Of a stretch of 64,000 nt of DNA, positions 22,725-62,866 are shown piece by piece. The DNA is taken from contig JBCCLJ010000007.1 in the NCBI GenBank assembly GCA_039026915.1, positions 3,651-67,650 on the forward strand, written 5' to 3'. This DNA is from Acidobacteriota bacterium. GTDB taxonomy: Bacteria > Acidobacteriota > Thermoanaerobaculia > Multivoradales > Multivoraceae. Under the pieces are notes generated by a model. The model was not told the DNA's origin and made no database searches. It worked only from the letters and a program-made list of their open reading frames with translations. Every line of letters begins with the position of its first letter. The first letter of the stretch is position 1. Position numbers and translations under genes: made by a program.

Positions 22725-22765
22725 GGGCTAAACCTCCAGGGCGTGCTGCCCGGGATCAGAGAACT

Positions 22766-23509: not shown

Positions 23510-23520
23510 GGCGAATGACC

Positions 23521-24090: not shown

Positions 24091-24134
24091 GAAGGTGAAT
24101 CCTTGGGAAGTGCGATGCATGGTTCGGTATCGCT

Positions 24135-25388
24135 TCAGCCGATGTTGCGGAGGTCGACGACGGTCTGCAGAGTCCGGCGACGATGAGCTCGATCGTTCTG
24201 ATCCTGCTCGTTGGTCGGTTCGGCCGGTTCGCTGTAGTCGCGGTTCTCGAGGGTCGTCAGCGGTGCCGACATGTAGCCTGCGTCGGGCCGGTCGGTGCGC
24301 GTCAGCGTGGAGATGCGCGCCGAGAAGAGGCGGTTGGTCGCCCAGCCGGCGGTCGTCAGATCGTCGCCCGGGTCGTTGGCCATCCACTCGTCGGCCGTGA
24401 GGTCGCTCGGGTCCTCGTCGATGTCGCCGTCGTTGTTCAGGTCGATGGCGAGTGCGACCTGGAGATCGAGCACGTTGTCGGCGATATCGACGCGCGTGTT
24501 GGCGTCGTCCGTGGTGTCGATCGGCGTCGTCGTGCTGCTCGGAATCACCGGAAAGAAGGTGTTCGTACCCGGGTAGAATTGTGCCCTCGAGAGCTTGCTG
24601 GAGAGGCCTCCGGTGACCGACTGGTCGTCGCGGATGTAGTAGCGATACTCCTCGACGACGCCCGCGAAACCGACGTTCGTCAGGTTGTTCGGAAAGGTGG
24701 AGCCGGTCGACGACAGCGGAACGTAGTTGCCCGTGTTGATTCCAGCGCCCGTGTTGGCGGTGAAGTTCAGCACGCCCCGAAGGTCTGCCGTTCCGTCGCC
24801 GTTGACGTCGGGGTTCGACCAGGAGGCGCCGGTGATCTCGACCACTCCGTAGATGGCGTCGTTCACCGCGCTGACCAGCATGAGAGCGATCGGCAGATTG
24901 CGGTCGAGCATGTCCTTGAGATCGTCGAGCGGCTGAGGGATGAACATCGACGGGCTCAGGCTGTCGACCTGGAGCGTGCCGGTCTGCGTCGAAGCCGTGT
25001 AGGAGAAGGCCGCCGGATTGGCGGAGTCGATCTGCATGATCGGCGTCGAGAAGACGCCCCGGACCGTCAGAACGTCGGTGTTCTCTGCCACGTCCTGACC
25101 GCCGATCTGAGTGCCGGTCGCCACGTTGTCGGCGATGGCGATCGAGCTGGCGCGGTTGAGTCCTCCGCGGCCCGCCATACGGGTCAGACGTGCAACGGTG
25201 TTCTGCGCTACGCGCTGCGACTGCTGCAGGTCGGCGATTTCCGTCTGCACGCGCGAGACGCGCCCGTTGACGTCGAAGAGAAGGAGAGCGAGAACGAGAA
25301 CTTCCGCCATGATCGCGCTCGCAATGACGAGCTCGACGAGGGTGAAGCCTTCTTCGGAGGCCTGCTGCTGGATCGGTTGTGCGTTCAT
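24135..25388 (-). CDS. pilW: Type IV pilus minor pilin PilW-like
   Basis: I set the start at the ATG at 25388. The prepilin leader is MNAQPIQQQASEEG|FTLVELVIASAIM, with a G-1/F+1 cleavage site and Glu at +5. The mature domain is about 400 aa. Confidence 0.65.
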   Translation of the reverse strand: MNAQPIQQQASEEGFTLVELVIASAIMAEVLVLALLLFDVNGRVSRVQTEIADLQQSQRVAQNTVARLTRMAGRGGLNRASSIAIADNVATGTQIGGQDVAENTDVLTVRGVFSTPIMQIDSANPAAFSYTASTQTGTLQVDSLSPSMFIPQPLDDLKDMLDRNLPIALMLVSAVNDAIYGVVEITGASWSNPDVNGDGTADLRGVLNFTANTGAGINTGNYVPLSSTGSTFPNNLTNVGFAGVVEEYRYYIRDDQSVTGGLSSKLSRAQFYPGTNTFFPVIPSSTTTPIDTTDDANTRVDIADNVLDLQVALAIDLNNDGDIDEDPSDLTADEWMANDPGDDLTTAGWATNRLFSARISTLTRTDRPDAGYMSAPLTTLENRDYSEPAEPTNEQDQNDRAHRRRTLQTVVDLRNIG

Positions 25389-25441
25389 CTTGGCGTTCTC
25401 GGAGTTGTCGTGATTTCGGTCCGGTCGTGCGGTGCCCGTCA

Positions 25442-25999
25442 TCACAGGGCCTTGTACATGCGCAGGGTGACCTGCTTGCCGGGGCTCATGCCCGAGGGGG
25501 GAGCTCCGACCTGGACCTCGATCTCCTTGAGGTGCACGGCCTGCGGATCGGCGCTGGCGTCGAGGAGCTCGGATGCATCCAAGACGCCGTCGGCGAGCGC
25601 GTTCATGCTGAACTGCCGCACCGTGACCGTGCGCTCGAAGGTGTCGATCTCGGTGCTCGGAAAGCTGCTGACGTCGTACCAGCGCTTCGAGTCCTTGGAC
25701 CACTTCTCGTTGCGTACGAGTTCGTTGCCGGCGATCAGTGTCAGGGCCGGGTCATTCGCAGGCAGCTGGATCATGCGCTCGAGCTCGGAGCGGGCGAGGT
25801 TCGTCGCCTCGGTTGCCTGCTTGCCCTGCAGATTGTTGGTGATCGAACGCGTGAACATCGGCAGAATGCCGACGCTGACGATGAGCAGCAGCGCGGCGGC
25901 GATGAGCACCTCGATCAGGGAAAAACCGGAGGGTTCTCGGTCGAAGAGCGGGCTTTCGGAGCGCGGGCGTGTCGGGGATGGAGCGAGCATCAGAACCAC
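25442..25999 (-). CDS. pilV: Type IV pilus minor pilin PilV-like
   Basis: The prepilin N-terminus is ...REPSG|FSLIEVLIAAALLLIVSVG. Start at the GTG at 25999 or the ATG at 25990. It overlaps the upstream fimT-like gene. Confidence 0.65.
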   Translation of the reverse strand: MVLMLAPSPTRPRSESPLFDREPSGFSLIEVLIAAALLLIVSVGILPMFTRSITNNLQGKQATEATNLARSELERMIQLPANDPALTLIAGNELVRNEKWSKDSKRWYDVSSFPSTEIDTFERTVTVRQFSMNALADGVLDASELLDASADPQAVHLKEIEVQVGAPPSGMSPGKQVTLRMYKAL

Positions 26000-26688
26000 T
26001 TCCAGAGGTTGGCGCCCGAGGTCGCGTCCTTGCCGCGCGGATAGAAGCCGCTGGTCCCAGATGCGAAGGGCGGAGTGGGGTAGTACTTGCGAACTTCGAC
26101 GCGCGCCGTGGCGCGAGGCTCGACGCGGATCTCGAAGAAGTTGCCGCGAGCGTCGGCGATACGGAAAGCGCCGGTCTCTCGGACCGATCCATCGGGCTCG
26201 AAGACTGCGACGGGACGGCTCGAGGAGTCCGTATTGAGGCCGTCGGCGATGTCCGTTCCGTTGGGCGCGGCGTCGGCCGGACCCCAGAACTTGATCGAAG
26301 TGGAGTCGTTTCTGCCTTGTGGCAGGCCGCTCTCGGAGACCCGGTAGTCGACGGTCCTGGCGACCGCGGTCGCGTTCGGCTGGTAGAGCAGGCCGGCGTC
26401 GTCGTCGACGTTGGCGAAGGCGAAGAGTCGGTTGTTCGTCGTATCGGCGAGCACGACGACGTCGACGCCTCGGCGGATGGCTTCTTGACGCGCCACCTGG
26501 AGGACGTTGGTCGACTCGCGTAGGGCCGAAGAAACCTTCGAGCGCTCCAGCATGAGCAGCAGGTTCGGGATGCCGACGAGAGCGAGTGTGCCGACGATGA
26601 GGATGACGATGAGGACTTCGATCAGAGTGAAGCCTTCGTCAGGATTCGCGGAGCGCGGCGTGGCGGGAGTGGGCAGGGGCACCTTCAT
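25990..26688 (-). CDS. fimT: FimT/FimU (GspH-like) type IV minor pilin
   Basis: It has the leader MKVPLPTPATPRSANPDEG|FTLIEVLIVILIVGTLALVGIPN with Glu at +5. It is the first gene of the minor-pilin operon. Confidence 0.65.
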   Translation of the reverse strand: MKVPLPTPATPRSANPDEGFTLIEVLIVILIVGTLALVGIPNLLLMLERSKVSSALRESTNVLQVARQEAIRRGVDVVVLADTTNNRLFAFANVDDDAGLLYQPNATAVARTVDYRVSESGLPQGRNDSTSIKFWGPADAAPNGTDIADGLNTDSSSRPVAVFEPDGSVRETGAFRIADARGNFFEIRVEPRATARVEVRKYYPTPPFASGTSGFYPRGKDATSGANLWKWF

Positions 26689-26790
26689 GACAGTCTCCTA
26701 GTAAGCAAGGGCTGTACCACCGATCGAGGGGCACTCTCGAGGCTCAGGAGAGCCCTGTTTTCATTGGGTTCAGGCGGTCTGCAGCAGTCG

Positions 26791-28581
26791 TCAGGCGGAC
26801 GATTGCTGCGCGGCATCGGACAGTGAAGTGTCACGATTGGTAACAAATCGGTCATGCGGTAGATGCAGTCGAGCCAGTGCACCGCCCTCGTCGCGGTTCC
26901 TCAGTTGGACCGTTCCGCCGTGCAGCTCGGCGATGCGTCGGCTCAGTGCGAGCCCGAGTCCGACGCCCTGGGCGCTTCCTGAGGCGAACGGGTGGAAGAG
27001 TCGGTCGCGAACGGCGTCGGCGATCCCGGGGCCACGGTCCTCGATCAGGACGTCGAAGCCTTCGTCGACCGCCACGATGCGCACACGAATCGGCTCGTCG
27101 GCGTGCGCGCCCTCGCGTTGCGCGCGCGCTGCGTTGTGCAGAAGGTTGCGCAGGGCTCTCTCGAGCAGCTGGGGATCACCGGAGACCTCGGCGGTGCCGA
27201 TCTTGCTGCGGACGGCGATCGGGACCTTTGCGAGAACCGGATCGGAAGCGGCGCGGTGCACGAGACGCTCGAGGACGACCGGCTCGACGCGCACCGATCC
27301 GGGGCGGGCGAAGCTCAGGAAGTCTTCGACGACTCTCTGCAGGTGGTCGGCTTCGTGGCGCAGTTCGACGAGATCCTCTTGCAGAGCTTGGGCCTCTACC
27401 GTCGCGCTGCGCTCGATCAACGTGAGATAGCCGCGCAAGGAGGCGAGTCCGTTGCGGAGCTCGTGGGCGAGCCCCGCCGTCAGCGCGCCGATCTGCTCGA
27501 GGCTCTCGCTGAGCCGCTCCTCCTCGTTGCGCTTGCGAATCTCGGTGAGATCGGCGAAGAGTCCGAGCCAGCCGCGCACGGCGCCGTCTTCACGGTGCAG
27601 CGGGTGCACGGTGAGTCCGACAGTGCGCTCGCTCGCTCCGGTCAGATCGCATTCACGTCGCTGAATGCCCGAGCCAGAGGCGACCGCCTCCTCGAGCGTC
27701 TGTCGCAGCGGGTTGTCGGCCGGCAGAAGCTCTTCGAGGTTCGTGCCAGGATCGACCTCCCGTTCGATTTCGAGGAGCTCGCGCCCCGCCGGGTTGATCG
27801 AAAGGACTTCACCGCGCGCATCGAGTACGAGCAGCCCGCTCTCGAGTCCGGTGGCAAGCGTGCGCTGCAGAGCTGCGATGTCCGCCTCGAAGGCGGGTGG
27901 GTCGTCTCCGTCGACCGGACGTTCGAGCGCCGTGACGGCGCGCTCGAAGGTCTCGAGCAGCATCTCGACGTCGTCCTTGTCGCTCGGCTCGGTCCCCTGC
28001 AGGCTCTTGGCTCGATCGAGCAAGGCGTCGAGAGGCCGCAGCAGATGACGAAGATAGAGGATGACCAGAACCAGGAGCCCGGCGTTGACGGAGAGCACCA
28101 GAGCGACCAGCAGCGGAAGCGCGCGGGACTGCCCGAGCAGCACCGGTGCTCGGTAGTCGACGCGGACGAAGGTTGGTTCGCTCGGCGTCGTTGCCATGGG
28201 CGAGAGGCCGACGATCGTGCCCGTCGCGCTCAGCGGGCCGATGCCCACGGGCTCCCTCACGTTCGGCAGTGCGAGGGGGGCCGGAGCGCTGCCGATTCCG
28301 ACCTCGACGATGGGCAGCCCCATCTCGTCGATGATCGCGACAGAGTCGGCGCCGAGGAGCATCCGGCTCAGAGTTGCTTCGTCGGGCATGCTCCGACCGA
28401 GTCGCGACGCGATTGCGGCCGCAGTCGAGGCCGCGCGGCTGCGCTCGTCGTCGACCAGGCGGGAGATGCTGGCTCGGTAAGAGAAGAGCGTGAAGGTCGA
28501 CAGGGCGATGAGGCCGAGCAGCGCCGCCGGCAGCAGGATGCTTGCTTCGCGTCGGAATCCGAGCTTGGGCCAGCTGCTCAC
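26791..28581 (-). CDS. Sensor histidine kinase (2 TM helices, PAS, HisKA, HATPase_c). It is a PilS/NtrB-like candidate partner of the sigma-54 regulator.
   Basis: It has two TM segments flanking a periplasmic loop, a PAS region, an H-box LAHELRNGLASLRGY, and N and G boxes (LLHNAARA, DRGPGI, GVGLGLALSRRIAELHGG). Confidence 0.8.
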   Translation of the reverse strand: MSSWPKLGFRREASILLPAALLGLIALSTFTLFSYRASISRLVDDERSRAASTAAAIASRLGRSMPDEATLSRMLLGADSVAIIDEMGLPIVEVGIGSAPAPLALPNVREPVGIGPLSATGTIVGLSPMATTPSEPTFVRVDYRAPVLLGQSRALPLLVALVLSVNAGLLVLVILYLRHLLRPLDALLDRAKSLQGTEPSDKDDVEMLLETFERAVTALERPVDGDDPPAFEADIAALQRTLATGLESGLLVLDARGEVLSINPAGRELLEIEREVDPGTNLEELLPADNPLRQTLEEAVASGSGIQRRECDLTGASERTVGLTVHPLHREDGAVRGWLGLFADLTEIRKRNEEERLSESLEQIGALTAGLAHELRNGLASLRGYLTLIERSATVEAQALQEDLVELRHEADHLQRVVEDFLSFARPGSVRVEPVVLERLVHRAASDPVLAKVPIAVRSKIGTAEVSGDPQLLERALRNLLHNAARAQREGAHADEPIRVRIVAVDEGFDVLIEDRGPGIADAVRDRLFHPFASGSAQGVGLGLALSRRIAELHGGTVQLRNRDEGGALARLHLPHDRFVTNRDTSLSDAAQQSSA

Positions 28582-28591
28582 GACACGCGAC

Positions 28592-29377
28592 TCAGAGCAG
28601 TTGCAGGTAGCTGCTGACCAGCTGCGGTCCGACGAAGAGCGCGATCAGGCTGGCGACGGCGAGAAAGACACCGAAGGGCAACTTCGATTGGAGGTCGCCG
28701 CTGCCGCGCGCGAGCAGCGCCGCGCCGACGATCGATCCCAGGATCGACGATAGAAAGAGGGTCACGACGACGCCTCCGACTCCGAGGAACGAGCCGATCG
28801 CAGCCAGCATTTTGGGATCGCCCAGGCCCATACCCATCTGACGGCGGATCAGGTACCAGACGCCGATCAGCAGCAGCAGCGATCCCGCTCCGAGCACGAT
28901 GCCGAAGAGCGAGCCGAGCGGCGTCACGAGAGGGGACCAGAAGGAGAGAAGGAGGCCGAGCACCATTCCTGGGTAGGTGAGTCTGTCCGGGAGGATGAAG
29001 TGCTCCGCGTCGATCAGGGCCAGCGACAGCATGAGAAAAACGAAGAGCATGGCGATCGGGGTGGCCAGGGTGAATCCGAAGGTCAGAAAGCAAGCGCCGA
29101 AAAGGACGCCCGTCAGCGCTTCCACCGCCGGATAACGCGCAGAGATTCCGAGGCCGCATTGGCGGCAGCGACCCTTCAGCAACAGGTAGCTCAGCACCGG
29201 AATGTTGTCGCGGGCCAGAACCGGCTCGCCGCAGCCCGGGCAGCGCGAGCGCGGTCGCACCGTCGACATGCCGCGCGGCAGTCGATAGACGACGACGTTC
29301 AGGTAGCTTCCGACGACCAGTCCGACGACGATGGCGTAGGCCATCGCGATCCAGAAAAGCTGAGGACTCGTGCTCAA
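28592..29377 (-). CDS. pilD: Prepilin peptidase (A24 family) PilD/GspO
   Basis: It has a Cys-tetrad zinc motif (CPGCGEPV...CRQCG) and multiple TM helices, including a helix with the GDPKMLAAIG motif. Confidence 0.85.
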   Translation of the reverse strand: MSTSPQLFWIAMAYAIVVGLVVGSYLNVVVYRLPRGMSTVRPRSRCPGCGEPVLARDNIPVLSYLLLKGRCRQCGLGISARYPAVEALTGVLFGACFLTFGFTLATPIAMLFVFLMLSLALIDAEHFILPDRLTYPGMVLGLLLSFWSPLVTPLGSLFGIVLGAGSLLLLIGVWYLIRRQMGMGLGDPKMLAAIGSFLGVGGVVVTLFLSSILGSIVGAALLARGSGDLQSKLPFGVFLAVASLIALFVGPQLVSSYLQLL

Positions 29378-29388
29378 GAGACTCGGTC

Positions 29389-30870
29389 TCAGCGTCGAGA
29401 CTCGGTGAGCGAAGCAAGGATGTGTCGCATGACGTCGACGCCGGCGTCGAAGTCGTCGACTCGGATGTACTCGTCCGGTCCGTGAATGCCCCGGCTATCG
29501 GCCCCTGCGATCGCGAAGGGAGAGAAACCGTAGGCCTCGACGCCGCGCGCTCGGAAGTAGCGACTGTCCGTCGTGCCGGGGATGAGAATCGGCAGGATCG
29601 GAAGCTCGTGGTGTTCCGGCAGAGCGCGAATCGCCCTCTGGAGGTCCTCATAGCCGCCCGCTTCGAGGGTCGGCTCGGCGACCTGAGGCGAACTGACGGT
29701 CACCTCGACGTCGACGTTGGGTCCGACCGCCTCTCGTACGTTCGCGAGGAAGGCCTCGCCGTCGGTGTCGGGCAGCAGGCGCACGTCGACGAGCGCCGAT
29801 GCGTTCGCCGGCACGACGTTCACCGAGCTGTCCCCGTTGTCGATGCGGGTCACCTGGACGGTGTCGAGGAACGCGGTCTGCATTCCGGGCAGCAGAACGC
29901 TGTAGAGACCGCCCTGCTGATCCAGCTCACGCAGCCGATCTTCGATCGCCTGGCGATCCTCTTGTCCGAAGAGAGCCCGGAACTTGGCGCCGTGAAGGGG
30001 TGCGAGTGCCTGGAAGTAGAGATGAGCCGCGGGAGAGACGTGGATCTCACGGCCGCTCGAAGCGAGCAGCTGCGTGAGACCGCGGGTGAGCGTATGGGTC
30101 GCACTGTCCGGATTGAAGCCCGAGCCGTGGCCGCCGCGGCCGCGTGCTGTCAGCCGGAGCCAGAGCGGTCGTTTCTGCGCGAACTCGATGCCCCACCAGA
30201 GCATGCGTCCGTTGACGGTCTTGTTCAGTCCCGCCTCGTTGAGCACGAGATCGGCATCTGCGAAGAGCTCGGGGTACTGGTCCAGGACGAACGCCGCGCC
30301 CTGACCGCCGCCGGCCTCCTCGTCAGCGACGGCGAGATAGATGACGTTGCGGTCGACCGGACCGCCGGCGTCGAGCAGAGTGAGCAGCGCCTCGAGGTGC
30401 GCGATGCCAAGGCTCTTGCTGTCGATGGCGCCGCGACCCCAGATCTTGCCGTCGGCAATGTCTCCGGAGAAGGCGCCGCGCGTCCAGCCGCTGCCTGCGG
30501 GTACGACGTCGATGTGATGGAGCAGGACGATCGACGGTGCGGGCTGCCGCTGAGCTTCGACCTTCGCGTACAGGCTCGTCCGGCCGTCGGGGGTGACGAG
30601 CAGCTGCGTCGTCACGTCGCGTGCGTGAAGGAGGGAGGCGAGGTAGTGAGCGCCCGCGGCTTCAAGGCCTGGAGGGTTCGTCGTATCGATGCGCAGATAC
30701 GCCTGCAGGCGCGAGCGTGGGTCCGGGGCGGCGGTCGAGCCGTCGTCACCTCCGGTGGGCTGACCCAGCAGAAGAGCTGCGCAGAGACAGAGAAGCGTAG
30801 AGAGCCGCCGCCGACGAGTCGAGCCGGGCCACGGCGCTTTCCGGCGGACGCTGTAGGGAGAGCTCTTCAT
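29389..30870 (-). CDS. Secreted M20-family metallopeptidase (ArgE/DapE/CPG2-like), paralog 1
   Basis: It has a signal peptide and M20 motifs (LLHHIDVVPA, GRGAIDSKSLG, ADEEAGG). It is paralogous to the 31806..33248 product, sharing LQAYLRIDTTNPPG against LQALLRIDTTEQTG. Confidence 0.7.
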   Translation of the reverse strand: MKSSPYSVRRKAPWPGSTRRRRLSTLLCLCAALLLGQPTGGDDGSTAAPDPRSRLQAYLRIDTTNPPGLEAAGAHYLASLLHARDVTTQLLVTPDGRTSLYAKVEAQRQPAPSIVLLHHIDVVPAGSGWTRGAFSGDIADGKIWGRGAIDSKSLGIAHLEALLTLLDAGGPVDRNVIYLAVADEEAGGGQGAAFVLDQYPELFADADLVLNEAGLNKTVNGRMLWWGIEFAQKRPLWLRLTARGRGGHGSGFNPDSATHTLTRGLTQLLASSGREIHVSPAAHLYFQALAPLHGAKFRALFGQEDRQAIEDRLRELDQQGGLYSVLLPGMQTAFLDTVQVTRIDNGDSSVNVVPANASALVDVRLLPDTDGEAFLANVREAVGPNVDVEVTVSSPQVAEPTLEAGGYEDLQRAIRALPEHHELPILPILIPGTTDSRYFRARGVEAYGFSPFAIAGADSRGIHGPDEYIRVDDFDAGVDVMRHILASLTESRR

Positions 30871-30936
30871 CGCGGGGCACCTTCGGTGCGCTGGTTTCAG
30901 TCTATGAGAGCGATGGCTGCCGTGGTCGAGGTCGGC

Positions 30937-30971
30937 AGAAAAGAAAAAGGCGCCGTGCTCAGCACGGCGCC
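30937..30971 (-). terminator. Intrinsic (Rho-independent) terminator downstream of the pilin gene
   Basis: A perfect 10-bp GC-rich inverted repeat (GGCGCCGTGC tca GCACGGCGCC) reads on the minus strand as a hairpin followed by a TTTTTCTTTTCT tract. It lies about 30 nt after the pilin stop at 31001. Coordinates are +/-2 nt. Confidence 0.6.
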
Positions 30972-31000
30972 CATCGCATCGGATTGGATCTCAGTCTGAC

Positions 31001-31564
31001 TTAGGAGCCGGCGCCCGAGGCGGCCGCGGAACCGCTGGGGTAGCGGACGAAGTAGCCGTCAGCCCAGACGATGTCCTGGTCGTAGTCGGTGGCGATGAAC
31101 GGACCCGGCGTGTAGGTGCCGGCGGAAGCCGTCAGGTCGCGGCCGAGGCTGCGGATGGCCATGACGTTCGAGCCGGAGAGGAGGTTGGCGTCGGTGCCGA
31201 TGAAGCCGAAGCCGTAGTTGTTGCCCCAGCCGTCGACGCGGGGAACTTCCTGCATGTAGAAGAAGGTGTCCGACGGGCGCAGGAGAGCCTGCAGGTCAGA
31301 GTGGTCGTAGCTGCTCGCGAGCCAGGTGTAGGTGGCGGCGGAGCCAGCGGCCGAGGAGCCGGCGGCGTCGGTGAGCCAGGACATCCAGGCGGTACCGATG
31401 GTGCGGACGTCCGCGACCGAGCGCTTCTGCTTGGCCTTCTGCAGGGCGTCGATGAGGTTGGGGATGAGGATTGCGGCGATGATGCCGATGATAGCGACGA
31501 CGATGAGGAGCTCGATGAGGGTGAAACCACCCTGGCTCTTCCGGTTCCGGATTCGATTCATCAT
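31001..31564 (-). CDS. pilA: Type IV pilin (PilA-like major pilin candidate). It lacks cysteines and has a Ser/Ala/Gly-rich C-terminus ending in Ser.
   Basis: I set the start at the ATG ATG at 31564 with a strong AAGGAGAAG Shine-Dalgarno. The leader is MMNRIRNRKSQGG|FTLIELLIVVAIIGIIAAILIPNL with Glu at +5. It has its own sigma-54-like promoter and a terminator. The track ORF start at 31666 is too far upstream. Confidence 0.7.
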   Translation of the reverse strand: MMNRIRNRKSQGGFTLIELLIVVAIIGIIAAILIPNLIDALQKAKQKRSVADVRTIGTAWMSWLTDAAGSSAAGSAATYTWLASSYDHSDLQALLRPSDTFFYMQEVPRVDGWGNNYGFGFIGTDANLLSGSNVMAIRSLGRDLTASAGTYTPGPFIATDYDQDIVWADGYFVRYPSGSAAASGAGS

Positions 31565-31622
31565 TTGGGTCTTCTCCTTGGTTAAGTCATGGCCCGGTCG
31601 GGCTTGATTCGAGGAGCTAGAA

Positions 31623-31638
31623 AGCAGGATGCGTGCCA
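31623..31638 (-). promoter_or_regulatory. Sigma-54 (-24/-12) promoter candidate for the pilin gene
   Basis: The minus-strand sequence TGGCACGcatcCTGCT matches the consensus TGGCACG-N4-TTGCW, with GG and GC at the correct spacing. It lies about 60 nt upstream of the pilin ATG. Coordinates are +/-1 nt. Confidence 0.5.
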
Positions 31639-31805
31639 GCCCTGCCAAGGGTCGTATTCCCTTCAAAAACTAGTAAATGCTAAGGCTACCCAAGTTCGTC
31701 TGACAATATGTGACACCAACTCCTGTCACTGGATGAGGTTTGCAGCGGGAAAGGACTCCCCGCACCGCGCGGCTGATCCGTTGCGGTGCACCCGGTCTCG
31801 ACGCA

Positions 31806-33248
31806 TCAGCGCTTCAGGAGCGCGTCGACGAGCTCGACGTAGAGATCGACGCCGCCGACGAAGGCGGGGAGTGCGATGCGCTCGTCTGGACCGTTGATCG
31901 TCGCCGCATCGGTCGCCAGGGCCAGGAACGGAGAGAAGCCGTAGCTCGGCACGCCCGCACCGCGAAAGAAACGTGAGTCGTTGGCGTAGAGCGTCAGAAA
32001 GAAGGGGCCCGTTGCTTCCGTCTCGAAGCGTTCTCTCAGTAGCTCCTGGATGCCCTCATAGGCTGGATGATCGAGCGGACTGGACGCGGCAGCCCCGAAC
32101 GGACCTTCGACGGTCATGCCGAGTCCGTGCGTCATCCACTCGGGCAGCAGTCGCTTCATCGCTCGATTCAGATCCTGCCCTGGACGCAGATGGACCATGA
32201 GACGCATGCGGAAGCCCTGGGTGCCGGGGTCCTTCTCGATCGGAAAGGCGTGGACCTCGTCGCGAAAGAGCGCCTGCATGTACGCCGGCAGGAAGAGGAA
32301 GTCTTCGATGTTCTCCAGAGCCGAGTCAGGATCCGAGAGGATTCGTGCGAAGGAGGTCTCTTCGCGTGACGGCGCGTAGGAGCGCAGGAATTCCCGTGCC
32401 GGCTCCGTCAGAGAGAGGTCGTCGATGAGGTGTCCGCGGGTCGAGAGGTCCTCGTAGAGATCCTCCAGGCGCTGCCGGGTGCGGGTACAGACCCAGACCT
32501 CGGCGAAGTGCTTCTGGGCGAACGCCGTCCCCCAGTACTTGATCGTCTCGCGGTCCGTTGCCTCGACGACGCCGCCTTCGGTCAAGAGCGCCCAGGTGCG
32601 ATCGACGAGCTCCGGGTACATCCGCACGATCCACTGGGCTCCCAGATGGCTTCCCGTTTCTTCGCTGCTCGTCGCGAGCAGGATCAGAGAGCGCTCCGGG
32701 ATCTCGCCCGTCGTTTCGATCTTCTCTCGAACCCGAAGAAAGGCCTCGAGCTGTGCCGACGCCACCGACTTCATGTCGAAGGCGCCGCGTCCGTAGATCC
32801 ACGGCCCCTCGATCTCGCCGCTGAAGGGACCGAACTCCCAACGGTCGGGTTGGCGGATCGGGTCGGTGTCGAGATGGCTGTGCAGAACGAGGGCCTCTGA
32901 AGACTGTCCTTCGATGATCGCCCAGAAGTTGGCGCGGTCTTCGATCAGAGCCTCGACCGTCGGTTCGATGCCGGCCTCGCGCACGACGTCGGCGAGGTAG
33001 TTGGCGGCCTGAAGCTCGCTGCCCGTCTGCTCGGTGGTATCGATGCGCAGGAGCGCCTGCAGGTGTTGGACGCTGCGCTCGGCGGCAAAGTCGAAGGTGC
33101 TCCACTCGGTGTCGATGCCGAGATTCAGTGCGCGCTGAACCCACGGGCTGAGCAGCAGAAAGAGGCCGGTCGTGACGGCGAAGCTGCCCCAGAGCCCGAA
33201 ACGGGCTGAGGATCTCAGAGTCTTCTGCACGGGTGTTCGCTCGGCCAT
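31806..33248 (-). CDS. Secreted/membrane-anchored M20-family metallopeptidase, paralog 2
   Basis: I set the start at the ATG at 33248 (MAERTPVQKTLRSSARFGLWGSFAVTTGLFLLLSP), which gives a signal-anchor. M20 motifs are present (LHSHLDTDP, GRGAFDMKSVASAQLEAF, SSEETGS). The upstream part of the track ORF is low-complexity Arg-rich junk. Confidence 0.7.
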   Translation of the reverse strand: MAERTPVQKTLRSSARFGLWGSFAVTTGLFLLLSPWVQRALNLGIDTEWSTFDFAAERSVQHLQALLRIDTTEQTGSELQAANYLADVVREAGIEPTVEALIEDRANFWAIIEGQSSEALVLHSHLDTDPIRQPDRWEFGPFSGEIEGPWIYGRGAFDMKSVASAQLEAFLRVREKIETTGEIPERSLILLATSSEETGSHLGAQWIVRMYPELVDRTWALLTEGGVVEATDRETIKYWGTAFAQKHFAEVWVCTRTRQRLEDLYEDLSTRGHLIDDLSLTEPAREFLRSYAPSREETSFARILSDPDSALENIEDFLFLPAYMQALFRDEVHAFPIEKDPGTQGFRMRLMVHLRPGQDLNRAMKRLLPEWMTHGLGMTVEGPFGAAASSPLDHPAYEGIQELLRERFETEATGPFFLTLYANDSRFFRGAGVPSYGFSPFLALATDAATINGPDERIALPAFVGGVDLYVELVDALLKR

Positions 33249-33317: not shown

Positions 33318-34916
33318 ATGAGGGTGACGAAGGAGAGCCTGGTGCGGTCCTGGCTGACCGGGGATGCACTCATCCCCCTGTCGGTCGCCGTCGTTCTCTG
33401 CGTCGGTTTCCTCGCCGCGGAGCGCTCTGTCCTCGGCGAGTTCGGCTTCCCGCTCGACGACGCCTGGATGCACCTGCAGTACGCGCGCAGTCTGGCGACG
33501 GGCGACGGCTTCAGCTTCCAGGGCGACGGGACCGGAGCGGGGGCGGCCGCACCTCTGTGGACGGCCATGCTGGCTCCGGGCGCCTGGGCGACGCCCGTCG
33601 GCGTCTTGTGGGCGAAGGCGCTCGGCATCGCGCTGCACCTTCTGGGAGTTGCCGTCCTGCTGAGTCTGGCGTCGCTCTGGGGTCTCGGTCGTTGGGCGTC
33701 ACTGCTGGCCGTCACTCTCTATCTACTGACGCGATGGACGCTCTGGTCGGCGCTTTCGGGAATGGAGATCTCGCTCTTCGTCCTCCTCTGTCTGCTGGGC
33801 GTGCGCCAGCACGTCCTCGACGTGCAGGCGTCGGCAGAGCGCTCCCGCTTTCCCTGGTCGACGCTCTGGCTGTCGCTGGCGACCCTGGCGCGTCCGGAGG
33901 GTCTGCTCCTCATCGTGCTGTGTTGGGCGGAGAGGTTGCTGAGCCTGAGCCGGCAGGGAGAGCAGAGCTCGATCGGCCTGCGCTCGACGCCCAACCGGCT
34001 GGGGCTTCACGCCGGACTTGCTCTGCTGCTTCTGACGCCGACGGCGCTCTACAACCTCGGCACCTCGGGCAGCGCACTGCCGATGGGGCTGGCCGCGACG
34101 TCGGACACTTCGCTGGGCCTGCCGAGGCTGAGAGATCTTTGGGAGATGGGCCTCGTCCTCTTCCCGGCACAGCCCTGGCTGACGCTCCTCCTAGGTGCCG
34201 GCGTCGTGGCGGCGCTGCGGACGCCGGAACGATCCCTGGTGCCCGCCGCGTGGCCGATCCTGCTGCCGATCGTCTATTCGGTGCTCGGCGGTGGCCTCCA
34301 TCAGGTGCACCACGGCCGCTACCTCTTCCCTCTCTTTCCCTTTTTCTGCCTGCTGGGCGGCCGGGCGCTGGCAGAGCTCGCGGCCGTCATGGCAGAGCGC
34401 CGGTTGTTCGGCATCCGGCTCCGCCACGCCGTTGCCGCCCTGCTGCTGATCACGGCCGTCGGTTCCTTGCGCGACGGACTCGATCACTATCTCGGCAACG
34501 TCACCGACGTCACCGACTCGGACGTGGCCATGGCGCGGTGGGCAGCGGCCAACCTGCCGCGCGACGCCGTGCTGGCCGTGCAGGACGTCGGCGCCTTCGG
34601 CTATCTGGCGCCCCAGCGTCTCGTCGACATGGGCGGCATCGTGACGCCCGAGATCCTGCCCTACCTTCGCGGTGAGCTGCGCGGCGCCCATCCGAGCGGC
34701 CTCGAAGGCTGGGCGACGTTCCTGCAGCAGCGGGACGTCGATTTCGTCGTGCTCTTCCCGGCGTCCTTTCGCGGTGGACTGCGCGACATCGACGCGGTCC
34801 TGCCCGGGGCCCGCATGGTGCATCGAGCAACGCTCGAGAACAACATCACGATGGCAGGGCCGGATCTCGTCGTGCTCGCCACGCCCTGGGGCCGGGGCGG
34901 CGGCAATCGTCCCTAG
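33318..34916 (+). CDS. Polytopic membrane protein, putative GT-C-fold glycosyltransferase (ArnT/PMT-like architecture); paralog of 36643..38253
   Basis: It has about 11 TM helices. An acidic motif in the first extracytoplasmic loop (FPLDDAWMHLQYARSLATGDG) resembles the DD/DE motifs of GT-C enzymes. It has a C-terminal soluble domain (NVTDVTDSDVAMARWAAANLP...). The family assignment is inferred, not proven. Confidence 0.5.
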   Translation: MRVTKESLVRSWLTGDALIPLSVAVVLCVGFLAAERSVLGEFGFPLDDAWMHLQYARSLATGDGFSFQGDGTGAGAAAPLWTAMLAPGAWATPVGVLWAKALGIALHLLGVAVLLSLASLWGLGRWASLLAVTLYLLTRWTLWSALSGMEISLFVLLCLLGVRQHVLDVQASAERSRFPWSTLWLSLATLARPEGLLLIVLCWAERLLSLSRQGEQSSIGLRSTPNRLGLHAGLALLLLTPTALYNLGTSGSALPMGLAATSDTSLGLPRLRDLWEMGLVLFPAQPWLTLLLGAGVVAALRTPERSLVPAAWPILLPIVYSVLGGGLHQVHHGRYLFPLFPFFCLLGGRALAELAAVMAERRLFGIRLRHAVAALLLITAVGSLRDGLDHYLGNVTDVTDSDVAMARWAAANLPRDAVLAVQDVGAFGYLAPQRLVDMGGIVTPEILPYLRGELRGAHPSGLEGWATFLQQRDVDFVVLFPASFRGGLRDIDAVLPGARMVHRATLENNITMAGPDLVVLATPWGRGGGNRP

Positions 34917-34999
34917 CAGCCTGCGGTAGAAGCCCGTGCAGAGGGGCCTACGCTGCGGGATCCCCACGCTCAGTTACACGCGACTCTCATCACGGGCCG

Positions 35000-36541
35000 C
35001 TACGGCCCTTTAGCAGGGGACGGACAGCCGTCGAAAGCGGCGGTGTCCTGCACGGGCCGCAGAGGCGTGCCCTGTGGGTTGTCATAGGTCCTCACCGCTC
35101 CCGTCACCGTGTCGGTGACCGTGATGCGGACTTCGACGTCTGTCAGGCCGGCGGCGAACACCCAGAAGCGCTGAGAGAACGAGCAGGCGTCGAGGACCTT
35201 GACGATCACCTCGACGTTGTCGGCCTCGAAGAACCAGAAGGTCGCCGTGTCCGTGGTCAGTTCGACGCTCCGCCCAGCGCCGGAGTCCCCCGAGCGCGTC
35301 CGATAGGTGACGTCGACCCGGAAGCGCTCGCTCGAGAGGCAGGCCGCCGTAGCGCTCGACGAGCAGCCTTCCGTCAACGCCGGTGTCGTCGCCGAGGCCA
35401 CGTTGCTGGGCGCGGATTCTCCCAGGCCGTTGCGAGCGCGCACGCGAAACCGATGATCGCTCGCAGCACGCAGCCCGGACACCGTAGCCTCGGACGCGTC
35501 GAGGCCTTCCGAGGCGGCCTCGAGCCAGGGGCCGCCGTTCGTCTGGACCTCGACGAGGAAGCCGTTCTCGTTGGAGCTCGCGTCCGTCCAGCGCAGTGCG
35601 ACGGTCGTCGCCGAGACGGCGGTCGCCGTCAGTCCGACGGGAGGGTCCGGCGGACCGAGCTCCTCGACTTCGGACGGGCCGGCGAGGAGCCAGACGGCGG
35701 TGCGGCGGGCGAAATCGAGCTGAAAGTCCGGCACGTGGTCCTCCTCTCGGAGGGTCCACAGCTCCGTCTCACCGCCGGGAGGGCAGTCTTGAAGGAACTG
35801 CAGGACCCGCGTCTCCTGGCCGGCGACCTCGGCCGAAAGGTCCATGCGGTCGCCGCGCTCGGTGACGCCGGTACAGCCGTGCAGGAGCGCTCTCTGTTCG
35901 ACGGACTCGAAGGCTCCCGGGTAGGGGCCGCCCCCGGGCACGATGCCGCCCTCGTAGAGCACGACGAGGTCGCGATCGCCGTGGATCTGCAGAGAGCGCA
36001 CGGGATGCGTCGCCTGGCAGTCCTGCGGCCGGTTGAAGTTCGCGCCGGCCAGGCTGGCGATGGCGCGCACGACATCCCCGTGCTCGCAGGCCATGCGGTT
36101 GGCCATGAAGCCGCCGTTGGAGTGACCGAAGAGGGCGGCGTGAGAGATGCGCCAGCGGGCCGCGACCTCCTCGTAGATGCGCCTCAGGTACTCCGCGTCG
36201 CCTGGTGACTGCCCGTAGAACTCGCAGCAGGCGGGAGTCGCGTCCCAATAGGTCTGTCCCACCGGGTTGCGGGTGCCGGTCGGCGCGACGAGGAAGAAAC
36301 CGAGCTCGTCGACGAAGCGTTGAAAGCCGAGGTAGAGCTCGGCTTCGTCACCGTTCGAGGTGAAGCCGTGCAGGTTGTAGAGGAGCGGCCACGCCCGATC
36401 CGGCGTGTAGTCGTCCGGAATGAAGACGACGAGGTTGCCCCGGCCGTAGTCGACGAGCACCGTGTCGAAAGCAGCGAGATGGCTGGGCGCGAGCAGGAGC
36501 AGTGCCGTGATGAGGAGAGCCGCTGGACGAAGCAGGTTCAT
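35000..36541 (-). CDS. Secreted esterase of the PHB-depolymerase/feruloyl-esterase type alpha/beta-hydrolase family, fused to an Fn3 domain and a Cys-containing C-terminal beta domain
   Basis: It has a signal peptide, the LYNLHGFTSNG motif and the nucleophile elbow GHSNGGFM. Its Fn3-like segment is PPVGLTATAVSATTVALRWTDASSNENGFLVEVQ. The C-terminal domain reads ...FWFFEADNVEVIVKVLDACSFSQRFWVFAAGLTDVEVRITVTD.... Confidence 0.65.
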   Translation of the reverse strand: MNLLRPAALLITALLLLAPSHLAAFDTVLVDYGRGNLVVFIPDDYTPDRAWPLLYNLHGFTSNGDEAELYLGFQRFVDELGFFLVAPTGTRNPVGQTYWDATPACCEFYGQSPGDAEYLRRIYEEVAARWRISHAALFGHSNGGFMANRMACEHGDVVRAIASLAGANFNRPQDCQATHPVRSLQIHGDRDLVVLYEGGIVPGGGPYPGAFESVEQRALLHGCTGVTERGDRMDLSAEVAGQETRVLQFLQDCPPGGETELWTLREEDHVPDFQLDFARRTAVWLLAGPSEVEELGPPDPPVGLTATAVSATTVALRWTDASSNENGFLVEVQTNGGPWLEAASEGLDASEATVSGLRAASDHRFRVRARNGLGESAPSNVASATTPALTEGCSSSATAACLSSERFRVDVTYRTRSGDSGAGRSVELTTDTATFWFFEADNVEVIVKVLDACSFSQRFWVFAAGLTDVEVRITVTDTVTGAVRTYDNPQGTPLRPVQDTAAFDGCPSPAKGP

Positions 36542-36642
36542 CGAGAGGCAGTCTAGCCGGCTGGATCGGCGTTCGTGTGCCCTGTGCTGCAGGGCCTGCT
36601 ACCATTTCGACGACGGCCAGCGCCGCCCGCTCTCATCCCCTT

Positions 36643-38253
36643 ATGTCCATTGAAATGAAGACTTACGGCGACCGCCGGTGGCTGTATTCGGCGCTGGCCG
36701 TCGCTGCGCTCTCGACGATCCTTCACTTCGGAGCCGAGCTCTATCTGCTGGAGGAGCCGGCCTTCCCGCTGGACGACTCGTGGATCCACCTTCAATTCGC
36801 GCGCAATCTGGCGGCGGGTGAGGGAATGAGCTTTCATCCCGGACGAGCGGTCGCCGGCTCGACGGCGCCGCTTTGGACGGGGCTGCTGGCTCTCGGAGCG
36901 TGGTCTCCGAGCCTGGCGATCGTCTGGAGCAAGCTCCTGGGAATCGTCTTTCATCTGATCGCGACTGCGGCGCTCTTCTCCGCGGCTCGGAGCTGGGGCC
37001 TCTCGGCTCTGTGGAGTGGTCTGGCGCTCCTTCTTTTCGTCTTGACCGATTGGGTGCAGTGGTCGGCGCTCTCCGGGATGGAGATCTCGCTCTTCCTGGC
37101 GCTCAGCACCGTCGGTCTGGCCGTGCATCTGCGCTGGGTGGGCGCGGATCCGGCCGAGCGCGGCACCCTGCCTTGGGCAACGCTCTGGTTCGCTCTGGCG
37201 GCTCTGGCGCGTCCTGAGGGCCTGCTGCTCCTCGTTCTCTCCTGGGCGGACGCTGCGCTGCGCTGGGAGACCGATCAGGACGATCTGCGGCCTCGACTGC
37301 AGGTGGGCCTGCCGTGGGCCCTGCGTCAGGCACTCTGCGCCACGATCGTGCTGGCGCCCGTCGGTCTCTACTACCTTTCGATCAGCGGCTCTCCACTGCC
37401 GACCACCTTCGGCATCAAATCGGCCGGCGATGGCGGGGTCGGGTTGCCCAATCTGCGCGACCTGTGGTTGATGGTTCGAGTCGTCTTTCAGCCGCAGCCG
37501 TGGATGGTCCTCTTCCTCGGCGCCGGCCTCGTCGCTTCGTTGCGCCAGGCACGGCGCGGGCTGCTGCCGGTTCTCTGGCTCTTCGCCCTGCCGATCGCGT
37601 TCTCCGTCCTGGCCGGCGGTGCGCGGCCCAATCTCGGCAACTTCGGCCGCTACCTCTTCCCGCTCTTTCCGGTCCTGCTCCTCGTTGGCTGTAGGGGGCT
37701 GGACGCGGCGACGCAGAGGCTGCCGGAGACGCTGCGCTTCGGTGCTGTCCGTCTGCGGCTGCGCCCGCTTTTGGCGCTCGCCGTGTTGGCACCGACGGCG
37801 CTGGGAGTCCTGCCCGGCCTGCAGCGCTACCTCACCAACGTCGCCAACGTCACGGACTCGGACGTCGCCGCGGGCCGTTGGATTGCGGAGAATCTGCCTC
37901 CGGACGCGCGCCTCGCCGTCCAGGACATCGGGGCGATCGCCTACTTCGCTCCGAACCCTCTCGTCGACATGGTCGGGATCGTCAATCCTGAGATCCTGCC
38001 CTACGTCCGCGGCGACAAGATGGGCGACCATCCGACACGCCTCGGCGGCTGGGCCGACTTTCTGCGCCAGTCCTCGGTCGACTACCTCGTGCTCTTCCCG
38101 CGGTCCTACGGCGGACTCGCCGCGATCGGCGAAGTGATGCCGGGGCTCGTTCCCGTGCACAGCATCCGGCTCGAACGCAACATCACCATGGCGGCCGACG
38201 AACTTCTGGTGCTGGCGGTCAGCCGCTCGCGCGAGGCACCAGGTAGAGAATGA
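36643..38253 (+). CDS. Polytopic membrane protein, putative GT-C-fold glycosyltransferase; paralog of 33318..34916
   Basis: FPLDDSWIHLQFARNLAAGEG, NVANVTDSDVAAGRWIAENLP and the shared TM topology match its paralog. I set the start at the ATG at 36643 (MSIEMKTYGDRRW). The track ORF start at 36577 is less likely. Confidence 0.5.
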   Translation: MSIEMKTYGDRRWLYSALAVAALSTILHFGAELYLLEEPAFPLDDSWIHLQFARNLAAGEGMSFHPGRAVAGSTAPLWTGLLALGAWSPSLAIVWSKLLGIVFHLIATAALFSAARSWGLSALWSGLALLLFVLTDWVQWSALSGMEISLFLALSTVGLAVHLRWVGADPAERGTLPWATLWFALAALARPEGLLLLVLSWADAALRWETDQDDLRPRLQVGLPWALRQALCATIVLAPVGLYYLSISGSPLPTTFGIKSAGDGGVGLPNLRDLWLMVRVVFQPQPWMVLFLGAGLVASLRQARRGLLPVLWLFALPIAFSVLAGGARPNLGNFGRYLFPLFPVLLLVGCRGLDAATQRLPETLRFGAVRLRLRPLLALAVLAPTALGVLPGLQRYLTNVANVTDSDVAAGRWIAENLPPDARLAVQDIGAIAYFAPNPLVDMVGIVNPEILPYVRGDKMGDHPTRLGGWADFLRQSSVDYLVLFPRSYGGLAAIGEVMPGLVPVHSIRLERNITMAADELLVLAVSRSREAPGRE

Positions 38254-39100
38254 GCAGGACCGCGACCCCCCAGAGGGCCAGGTTGAGCAGGAACGGCAGA
38301 TCCGAGAGCATCGACTCCGTCGGGTTGCGCTCGTCGTTCACCTGGTAGGTCAGATAGAGATAGCGGAAGATGCCGAAGAGCACGAAGGGCACCGTGTACA
38401 CCAGCGTGGCGCCGCCGAACTTGGCGGTCGTCTCCGGCGCGGTCGTCCACAGCGCGTACGACATCAGCGTCGACGCGGTGACGACGTTCATCATCTGGTC
38501 GAGAAAGGCCGGGCTGTAGTGGCCGAGCACTTCACGCTGGGCGGCCGCCGACTCGTCGAGCAGGACGAGCTCGTGACGCCGTTTGGAGAAGGTCAGGAAG
38601 AGCGCCATGAAGATGGTGCACAGCAGCAGCCAGGACGACACTTCGACGTCGATCGCCATGCCGCCGGCAAGGACCCTGAGTACGTACCCCATGCCGACGA
38701 TCAGGACGTCGATGATGACCACCTTCTTGAGCCCCGTCGAGTACAGGAGGTTGATCACCAGATAGACGGCCGCGACGATCAGAAAGTCGAGGCCGAGATA
38801 CCAGGATCCCGCGAGTGCGGTGAGCGCGACGACGATCATCGCGACGACGGCGGTGCCGACCTTGAGCTCGCCGGAGGCGATCGGACGGAACTTCTTCAGC
38901 GGATGCAGGCGGTCGCGCTCGCGATCCATGATGTCGTTCAGCAGGTAGATCGAGCTCGCCAGCGCGCAGAAGACGACGAAGGCGATTCCGGCCTGCAGGA
39001 GCATCTGCGGATCGCGCAGAGACTGCGCGAAGATCAGCGGGGGCAGAACGAAGAGGTTCTTCACCCACTGCTTGGGGCGCATGGTTCGGAGAAGCGGCAC
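38219..39100 (-). CDS. UbiA-family polyprenyl-phosphate phosphoribosyltransferase (decaprenyl-phosphate 5-phosphoribosyltransferase, Rv3806c/UbiA-like)
   Basis: MRPKQWVKNLFVLPPLIFA and the Asp-rich motif NDIMDRERDRLHPLKKFRPIASG match DPPR synthases, and it has about 8 TM helices. It is 293 aa. Confidence 0.7.
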   Translation of the reverse strand: MPLLRTMRPKQWVKNLFVLPPLIFAQSLRDPQMLLQAGIAFVVFCALASSIYLLNDIMDRERDRLHPLKKFRPIASGELKVGTAVVAMIVVALTALAGSWYLGLDFLIVAAVYLVINLLYSTGLKKVVIIDVLIVGMGYVLRVLAGGMAIDVEVSSWLLLCTIFMALFLTFSKRRHELVLLDESAAAQREVLGHYSPAFLDQMMNVVTASTLMSYALWTTAPETTAKFGGATLVYTVPFVLFGIFRYLYLTYQVNDERNPTESMLSDLPFLLNLALWGVAVLLILYLVPRASG

Positions 39101-53823: not shown

Positions 53824-53827
53824 CCGA

Positions 53828-55039: not shown

Positions 55040-55112
55040 GTCTCGCTCGTGGACGAGATGCGGCGTGCCACCGTAGGCTTCAGTACGGGCCGAGCGCCCG
55101 GGAGCCGCAACG

Positions 55113-57681: not shown

Positions 57682-57683
57682 TC

Positions 57684-59829: not shown

Positions 59830-59847
59830 ATGACGCATTTGCAGACA

Positions 59848-62831: not shown

Positions 62832-62866
62832 CGGCGCCCTCTCGGCGAACGAATGGAGAGCTTTCG

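Follow-up and report, generated by a model that had tools for sequence, protein, structure and literature searches.

In several groups of bacteria, the major pilin gene of the type IV pilus (T4P) is under the control of RpoN (sigma-54) and an enhancer-binding protein: RpoN and PilR drive pilA in Geobacter sulfurreducens (PMC2725144), and RpoN works together with an enhancer-binding protein on the major pilin gene of Pseudomonas aeruginosa (PMC6058289), Myxococcus xanthus (PMC6211767) and Xanthomonas (PMC7170775). In commensal Neisseria, pilE has a sigma-54 promoter and is served by the response regulator Npa, with integration host factor (IHF) between them (PMC6528607). The kinase PilS has six N-terminal transmembrane (TM) segments, which contact PilA (PMC6058289), and M. 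xanthus has a second kinase/NtrC-type pair in its pil locus, PilS2-PilR2, which is reported to affect T4P by another route than PilSR (PMC6211767, citing Bretl 2016). The present work deals with a pilin gene and its -24/-12 promoter element in a 64-kb stretch of DNA from an Acidobacteriota bacterium of the class Thermoanaerobaculia (contig JBCCLJ010000007.1), the whole of which is called the window. For Acidobacteria, full-text literature searches have returned no description of sigma-54 pilin control.

The explanation that best accounts for the locus is a self-contained sigma-54 transcription unit for a type IVa (T4a) major pilin, which is considered very probable. An earlier note on the same DNA had proposed such a unit, together with its control by PilS/PilR-like regulators encoded in the window; the evidence on both proposals is presented below, with that on the unit itself first.

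The pilin transcription unit

The elements of the unit, from upstream to downstream, are as follows.

31728..31701, minus strand: candidate upstream activating site (UAS) of the pilin promoter (TGACA at 31728..31724, TGTCA at 31715..31711, TGTCA at 31705..31701)
31700..31639, minus strand: AT-rich spacer between the UAS and the promoter, a possible bend or IHF-like region, which includes TAGCAT
31638..31623, minus strand: -24/-12 element TGGCACGCATCCTGCT (GG at 31637-31636, GC at 31625-31624)
31612..31565, minus strand: predicted 5' untranslated region (5'UTR) of ~48 nt, the start being placed at ~31612, 12 nt past the -12 C
31564..31001, minus strand: prepilin gene (187 aa, 13-aa leader, ATG start)
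30972..30939, minus strand: intrinsic terminator, GGGCGCCGTGC-TGA-GCACGGCGCC(T) followed by TTTTTCTTTT

Matches to sigma-54 promoters were scored against the consensus TGGCAC-N5-TTGCW, with the GG and GC doublets exactly 10 bp apart. The near-consensus element that had been noted upstream of the pilin gene was recovered with a single mismatch (C at -14, a base which recurs in 12 of 59 orthologous promoters), within an intergenic region of 240 nt and ending 58 nt before the ATG. The number of such matches in the window alone does not exceed chance: three sites with at most one mismatch were found where 0.95 would be expected, and at least as many occur in 9 of 100 dinucleotide shuffles. All three are intergenic and oriented toward a start codon, in a window of 66% GC with an intergenic share of ~6.8%; they precede the pilin gene (31638..31623), the first gene of a minor-pilin operon (26719..26704) and the gene of a secreted TPR protein (1043..1028).

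It is thus the position of the pilin site and its conservation in relatives, rather than the count in the window, that place it beyond chance. Among 42 loci with full-length pilin homologs, 27 sites (at most one mismatch) are located no more than 150 nt upstream of the pilin gene, against an expectation of 0.086 derived from the other sequence of these loci (Poisson P~1.5e-57). The site is, for the greater part of the loci, the sole one in ~16 kb on both strands, and several of the 15 other sites lie on the same strand, 630-730 nt off, before tandem pilin paralogs. Moreover, in a five-way alignment with relatives of 81-85% protein identity, where the intergenic region averages 66% identity, the 16-mer TGGCACGCATCCTGCT is identical in the window and in loci L001, L085 and L086, and differs by one spacer base in L087. 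The UAS, a block of the 5'UTR and the Shine-Dalgarno sequence are also kept in this alignment, while other intergenic sequence diverges. From the family, the promoter consensus T-GG-C-A-(C/T)-N5-(T/C)-T-GC-(T/A) has been derived. The element noted earlier is in this way confirmed.

At the other end of the gene, the GC hairpin with T-tract that had been noted ~30 nt downstream was found 28 nt past the pilin stop, as a stem-loop (30972..30948) of 11 pairs, 9 of them G-C, with a loop of 3. The closest relatives keep the stem, with a compensatory change from C:G to G:C at its top, and a terminator-like hairpin with T-tract follows 36 of the 59 sigma-54-preceded prepilin genes, against 1.5 in random windows. 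The terminator being conserved, the monocistronic architecture is therefore conserved too. These comparisons support the -24/-12 element as a real, conserved promoter of the sigma-54 type, serving a putatively monocistronic pilin gene with its own terminator.

Upstream site, spacer and leader

The candidate UAS is located ~65-90 nt upstream of the -24 element, as a block conserved in the five-way alignment between flanks that diverge, and a copy is found at the identical offset in L001. Sixty-one sigma-54-preceded prepilin genes were anchored on the -24 element for the search of such sites (59 were used for some other counts), and the anchored promoters exhibit an inverted repeat, TGACA-N5/6-TGTCA, which in some lineages takes the form TGACG...CGTCA. 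In the stretch from -150 to -20 of the -24 T, GACA-N4-7-TGTC is present in 26 of the 61 promoters (0.65 in random windows drawn from these loci), with a median position of ~-106 from the -24 T, and a looser form in 41 (2.3 in random windows). The window has two matches to TG[AT]CA-N4-7-TGTC, both upstream of pilus sigma-54 sites. At ~70-150 bp upstream, where an enhancer is to be sought, the conserved repeat at 31728..31701 is thus a candidate site.

The region from -60 to -1 is AT-richer than its own locus in 51 of 59 orthologous promoters, and an IHF-like sequence WATCAANNNNTTR (at most one mismatch) was found in 16 of the 59, against 1.4 expected; the spacer of the window itself gave no good IHF match. 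Within the 5'UTR, a 12-nt block GCCCGACCGGGC (31603..31592, minus strand) is invariant among relatives, other leader positions being variable, and L001 has a 3-nt insertion in the loop. The small hairpin predicted in the 5'UTR does not differ thermodynamically from shuffles (z = -0.01), and an Rfam scan of 30700..32000 for riboswitches and leader RNAs gave a sub-threshold snoRNA match only. A strong Shine-Dalgarno sequence, AAGGAG (31579..31574), is located 9 nt 5' of the pilin ATG.

The pilin and its identification as major subunit

The gene proposed at 31001..31564 was confirmed on the minus strand. Its product has the N terminus MMNRIRNRKSQGG/FTLIELLIV (given at greater length as MMNRIRNRKSQGG/FTLIELLIVVAIIGIIAAILIP and MMNRIRNRKSQGG/FTLIELLIVVAIIGIIAAILIPNL), with a class III signal peptide composed of a short basic leader, Gly-1, Phe+1, Glu+5 and a hydrophobic alpha-1 helix, and scores above the cutoff of both Pfam N_methyl (36.9 bits) and TIGR02532 (32.1 bits). 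As had also been stated, the protein has zero cysteines and a C-terminal Ser, in a Ser/Ala/Gly tail; the disulfide-bonded D-region at the C terminus of T4a pilins was accordingly not found in this cysteine-free pilin. The disulfide was not treated as obligatory, because some accepted T4a pilins, such as Geobacter PilA-N, likewise lack it.

The family comprises more than 7,598 homologs, chiefly from Acidobacteriota/Thermoanaerobaculia. The nearest genome is a 'Ca. Multivoraceae' metagenome-assembled genome (MAG), with 82% identity, and the identical pilin sequence was found in public data on one 9-kb contig only. For residues 1-65, leader included, the closest solved structures in the PDB are Geobacter PilA-N and Myxococcus PilA; the profile search of the family against PDB sequences matched these N-terminal 65 residues only, with no solved homolog detectable by sequence for the globular domain. 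The AlphaFold model (pLDDT 70.9) consists of a long N-terminal helix, a short helix and four strands, and Foldseek against the PDB gave only a weak match to PAK pilin (E = 0.73). In the globular domain (window 31001..31400, residues ~55-187), which has no cysteines, the family conserves DGWG, RSxGRD and ATDYDQDIVWADG. The Asp-rich motif among these might bind a metal in place of the disulfide, as in GspG. A GspG-like nature of the globular domain was left unconfirmed, since the PDB profile search reached the N-terminal 65 residues only.

The identity of the pilin is best approached through gene context in distant members of the family. In Aminicenantes, Holophagae and other Acidobacteriota (L012-L027, L033), the family is encoded directly after pilB, pilT, pilC, a histidine kinase and a sigma-54 activator. 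In L012, the NCBIfam scores of PilB (733.8 bits, cutoff 675.65) and PilT (465.9, cutoff 319.1) are above the cutoffs, and the top match of PilC is the Myxococcus PilC model. The presence of distant members in pilB-pilT-pilC-kinase-activator-pilin clusters indicates that the pilin is the major type IVa pilin, so that the earlier assignment to the major T4P subunit is borne out by the pilA slot occupied in other Acidobacteriota. From this context we conclude that the window pilin would be the major type IVa pilin (PilA) of this Thermoanaerobaculia-class bacterium. Promoter, terminator and major-pilin assignment can together be accepted with good confidence.

In the lineage of the window the arrangement is different: UbiA, GT-C membrane proteins, M20 peptidase, pilin(s), M20 peptidase, PilD, kinase and FimU...PilY1. 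This order, with PilD syntenic with the pilin, is kept in L001, L005-L007, L009, L010, L035, L085, L092 and L093. PilD and FimU-PilVWX-PilY1 are encoded within 5 kb of the window pilin, as listed here with the elements and regulatory genes around them.

29377..28592, minus strand: prepilin peptidase PilD (A24; A24_N_bact 111.8 bits, Peptidase_A24 67.4 bits, Pfam)
28581..26791, minus strand: histidine kinase with 2 TM segments, periplasmic domain, PAS, HisKA and HATPase (Pfam, hydropathy)
26844..26830, minus strand: GTTACCAATCGTGAC, a degenerate copy of GTTAC-N4-6-GTAAC in the 3' end of the kinase gene
26719..26704, minus strand: sigma-54 element TGGTACAGCCCTTGCT, 15 nt before the ATG (26688) of the fimU-like gene
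26688..17719, minus strand: minor-pilin/PilY1 operon (Pfam, NCBIfam)
16386..17702, plus strand: NtrC-family sigma-54 activator with REC, AAA+ (GAFTGA) and HTH_8 (Pfam)

The kinase and the regulator of the window

An NtrC-family activator and a PAS kinase had been reported to flank the minor-pilin operon, and both were found there; their reading as a PilS/PilR pair is not supported. The kinase has hydrophobic segments at about residues 15-33 and 157-175, around an extracytoplasmic domain of ~120 aa, and orthologs in L001, L006, L007 and L009 share this two-segment topology. In most of the pilA-adjacent kinases of L012-L033, about 5-6 hydrophobic segments were counted in the first ~180 residues (TM counts come from a crude Kyte-Doolittle prediction). 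The six TM segments of PilS were therefore not found in the window kinase, which has 2. This kinase is kept between PilD and the minor-pilin operon in related loci.

The regulator (Pfam Response_reg, Sigma54_activat and HTH_8; Walker A at residue 162, GAFTGA at 209) has the architecture of receiver, sigma-54 AAA+ and Fis-type helix-turn-helix (HTH) domains, which is generic to the NtrC family. Fourteen pilA-adjacent activators share the HTH signature LG(I/M)x(Y/F)RS(L/F)RY (LGxx[YF]RS[LF]RY) and a linker of ~20 aa; the HTH of the window regulator reads LGISTRTLQRRVKK, with neither the signature nor the linker. Its identity to those activators is 38/45/34% (REC/AAA/HTH), against 51/63/45% among themselves, and NCBIfam gave no PilR-specific match, the top ones being NtrC and AtoC, below cutoff. 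Orthologs with 63-72% identity occur in three other genomes in the order selA, regulator, convergent PilY1...FimU operon and kinase. As a side observation, the regulator gene has a GTG start codon, overlapping with the selA (selenocysteine synthase) stop codon at window 16386..16389; the selA-regulator pairing is found in four genomes, including L082, L083 and L084, with no overlap in L084.

The control of this pilin by the window regulators, as had been suggested, is thus not upheld, the pair bracketing the minor-pilin operon instead, in at least three other genomes as well. A search for a PilR-type regulator over 8-10 kb on either side of the pilin in the Thermoanaerobaculia-type loci, and just past the window ends in assemblies that share these genes, found none. 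Since the pilin promoter has the motif that is seen where a PilR-type gene adjoins pilA, it would be served by an activator which is probably encoded outside the window. The kinase and the regulator, for their part, most likely control the minor-pilin/PilY1 operon.

The minor-pilin operon and its promoter

The operon is composed of genes for a FimU/GspH-like protein, a PilV-like protein, PilW, PilX, an FxLYD-domain protein, PilY1 with a VWA domain and a second FxLYD-domain protein. The FxLYD proteins (23509..22766 and 18504..17719, both minus strand), located before and after PilY1 and matched by NF038353 just above cutoff, are not standard components of type IVa pili (T4aP).

The sigma-54 site of this operon has equivalents in L001/L082 (1 mismatch), L085 (0), L006 (0), L084 (0) and L093 (2). 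In addition, GTTACCAATCGTGAC is the only match to GTTAC-N4-6-GTAAC in the window, and at the same place perfect palindromes are found in L001/L082, L006, L007 (two copies) and L093, and a one-mismatch copy in L085 (examples are GTTACCGAAGGTAAC, GTTACGATGGGTAAC, GTTACTGTTCGTAAC and GTTACCGACGGTAAC). The palindrome is unique in every locus having one, and is absent from the pilin promoter.

Some features of the operon leader may be noted. The sigma-54 element ends 12-17 nt before the ATG in four genomes and 33 nt before it in L084, all start codons being ATG, and the predicted leader of the operon transcript, of 2-7 nt, excludes the AGGAG located between -12 and +1. This spacing suggests that the minor-pilin sigma-54 transcript is leaderless, with the Shine-Dalgarno sequence perhaps serving only transcripts that read through from the kinase gene.

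Taken together, the two promoters allow a tentative scheme, to which somewhat less than even weight is given, with two sigma-54 circuits in Thermoanaerobaculia: a PilR-type activator encoded elsewhere would act on the pilin through TGACA/TGTCA, and the bracketing periplasm-sensing kinase and NtrC-type regulator would act through GTTAC-N4-6-GTAAC on the minor-pilin operon, whose transcript would be essentially leaderless. If this were true, different signals would gate pilus initiation and filament supply.

Proposed mechanism and alternative explanations

In the proposed mechanism, the RpoN-RNA polymerase would sit on the -24/-12 element as a closed complex, and a PilR-type enhancer-binding protein of the NtrC family would occupy the upstream repeat, loop over the AT-rich spacer to the polymerase and open the promoter with ATP. 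Transcription from ~31612 to the hairpin at ~30945 would then give a monocistronic mRNA of ~670 nt. The prepilin would be cut after Gly13 and N-methylated on Phe by PilD, encoded 1.6 kb downstream, and the pilin would polymerise on a priming/tip complex of FimU-PilVWX-PilY1. These steps are drawn from established knowledge on sigma-54, while the sequence elements, their conservation, their enrichment and the T4aP association are observed.

Several points weigh against this explanation. On the side of transcription, about one third of the homologous loci have no good sigma-54 site, and the UAS of the window is a variant (a direct repeat TGTCA-N5-TGTC with TGACA upstream) and not a perfect palindrome, with no literal match to the P. 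aeruginosa PilR hallmarks TGT-N11-AGA and GTCT as quoted in PMC6058289. At the minor-pilin promoter, a TGACAC/TGTC element adjoins the GTTAC palindrome, and one activator could serve both the pilin and the minor-pilin promoters. No rpoN was found in the 64 kb or in the ~10 kb adjoining either end; the GAFTGA-bearing activator implies that RpoN exists. The start site, the RpoN dependence and the termination are all inferred from the DNA sequence. On the side of the protein, the pilin has no C-terminal disulfide, which is common in T4a pilins, and its top NCBIfam match is GspG (TIGR01710; 47.2 bits over residues 13-121, cutoff 88.85). The sole extension ATPase and platform protein of the window score equally for T4P and for the type II secretion system (T2SS), and no PilT is encoded in the 64 kb.

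Some of these points lead to other readings, of which the most tempting is that kinase and regulator are indeed a PilS/PilR pair that activates the pilin promoter and possibly that of the minor pilins. In favour of this, the regulator is truly an activator of the sigma-54 kind, with no second one encoded in the window, and its gene stands 13 kb from that of the pilin; in the Thermoanaerobaculia-type loci no other activator gene was found within 10 kb of the pilin, and TGACA-N6-TGTC stands upstream of both sigma-54 sites, with only these two matches in 64 kb. Such a role is nevertheless unlikely: the kinase has 2 TM segments and a periplasmic domain and not six TM segments (PMC6058289), the regulator lacks the HTH signature and linker and is less similar to the pilA-adjacent activators than these are to each other, and the pair is conserved as a bracket of the minor-pilin operon, with the regulator translationally coupled to selA. 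Furthermore, the minor-pilin promoter has a palindrome of its own which is missing at the pilin promoter.

Quite improbable, in turn, is the identification of the pilin as the major pseudopilin (GspG-like) of a T2SS formed by the GspF/GspE/secretin cluster at 53-63 kb, although the GspG match, the absence of cysteines and the matches of some family members to Pfam T2SSG point that way, as do an ATPase and a platform protein slightly better as GspE/GspF than as PilB/PilC and the absence of PilT from the window. The GspG score is well under the cutoff, and Pfam T2SSG gave no match to the window pilin itself. In other Acidobacteriota the family is found downstream of true PilB and PilT, above their cutoffs, and PilC; the linkage in the window is to minor pilins of the T4aP type and PilY1, and not to GspH-K; the cluster at 53-63 kb has a small pilin-like gene of its own; and tandem arrays of paralogs with individual sigma-54 promoters are typical of major pilins. 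As for transcription from a sigma-70-type promoter, TTGTCA-18-TAGCAT (31706..31677), with a fortuitous -24/-12 match, one such site against 0.3 expected and the non-significant count of sigma-54 sites in the window leave it only the slightest probability, in view of a sigma-54 element conserved across dozens of diverged loci. This candidate was rejected, its -35 TTGTCA being a conserved half-site of the UAS and its -10 TAGCAT unconserved even in the closest relatives. The self-contained sigma-54 unit for a T4a major pilin is consequently retained as the preferred reading.

Neighbouring genes

The pilin gene is flanked by two paralogous genes for M20-family metallopeptidases (30870..29389 and 33230..31806, both minus strand). 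This M20-pilin-M20 sandwich is present in at least 10 related loci, at times with 2-3 tandem pilin paralogs between or beside, and we know of no functional link between M20 peptidases and pili to report.

Beside the pilin, a probable glycosylation island extends over 33318..39100, with GT-C-like genes at 33318..34916 and 36577..38253 (plus strand) and a UbiA gene at 39100..38219 (minus strand). The latter is scored by NCBIfam as decaprenyl-phosphate phosphoribosyltransferase, above the cutoff (306.5 > 234); this enzyme takes the first step to a D-arabinofuranose lipid donor. For the two multi-TM proteins the matches are weak and concern a putative glycosyltransferase family and an arabinofuranosyltransferase. 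Across Thermoanaerobaculia, the genes of the island keep their synteny with the pilin, and L093 (1..8311) adds PAP2, PMT_2, STT3 and DegT. Loop and tail segments of the pilin are rich in Ser, Ala and Gly. Island and pilin together resemble the TfpW/D-Araf glycosylation of the group IV pilins of P. aeruginosa.

A second, compact machine similar to those of pili or secretion is encoded at 51856..63316 (plus strand), and runs on in L090 to ~15651. It includes an extracytoplasmic function (ECF) sigma factor, an unknown gene, a Secretin_N protein, GspF/PilC-like and GspE/PilB-like (MshEN domain) proteins, four PilMNOP-like genes, a secretin of 834 aa (with TPR-like and cohesin-like regions) and one small pilin-like gene, with neither PilT nor a GspH-K set. 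It may assemble the pilin encoded at 31 kb or be a separate, T2SS-like system.

Finally, the third sigma-54-like site of the window, CGGCACGTAACTTGCT (1043..1028, minus strand, 1 mismatch), is intergenic and lies ~90 nt upstream of the gene for the secreted TPR-repeat protein, whose ATG is near 937 and which continues past the window edge. An inverted repeat, CTCACGA-N9-TCGTGAG, is found ~125 nt further upstream (1165..1187), and the site is downstream of an ExbB-ExbD-ExbD-TonB-DUF4388 cluster.

Comparison with known systems

The closest likeness is to pilA of Geobacter and Myxococcus, where a -24/-12 element also precedes a monocistronic major pilin gene, the order pilB-pilT-pilC-pilS-pilR-pilA is the one seen in distant members of the family, and the leader and alpha-1 helix are the most similar. 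In these organisms, the activation of pilA by PilR has been demonstrated by experiment (PMC2725144, PMC6211767). The Geobacter-type loci L049 and L068 likewise have a motif of the TGACA...GTCA type before pilA. The difference lies in the position of the gene, since the pilin in the lineage of the window stands away from pilBTC-pilSR, between M20 genes and near PilD, a kinase that is not of the PilS type and the minor-pilin operon.

In P. aeruginosa, the minor-pilin operon is under FimS-AlgR and Vfr and is not known to be under sigma-54, whereas the minor-pilin operon described here has a sigma-54 promoter of its own. The pilin gene itself is comparable with that of the PilS-PilR system, having in common a sigma-54 promoter, an upstream NtrC-family activator and a monocistronic unit (PMC6058289). 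It differs in that no 6-TM kinase of the PilS type is encoded in the window, and in that the UAS is of the TGACA-N5/6-TGTCA form and not the TGT-N11-AGA/GTCT quoted in that paper.

The PilS2-PilR2 pair of M. xanthus, as described in PMC6211767, is analogous to the pair that brackets the minor-pilin operon; here a 9-kb operon separates the two genes, and the regulator would share its transcript with selA. With pilE of commensal Neisseria, the pilin family of Acidobacteriota has in common the AT-rich spacers and the enrichment in IHF-like sites, although the window spacer itself gave no good match to the IHF consensus, and phylum and pilin class are not the same.

The pilA gene relocated away from pilSR in Thermoanaerobaculia, the minor-pilin sigma-54 promoter with its own enhancer and the glycosylation-like island beside the pilin are less ordinary points, of secondary rank. 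The results correct a tempting assignment of the regulator, which is probably wrong, and indicate a separately regulated minor-pilin operon; for the annotation of Acidobacteriota MAGs, they provide rules in the form of a promoter consensus, a candidate enhancer motif and a terminator. Current understanding is not overturned by them. The control of pilin genes by sigma-54 and an enhancer-binding protein is textbook knowledge elsewhere, and strong comparative support from sequence now argues for extending RpoN/PilR pilin control, previously described in Proteobacteria, Myxococcota and Geobacter, to a pilin family of the Acidobacteriota that is very large and for the most part uncultured.

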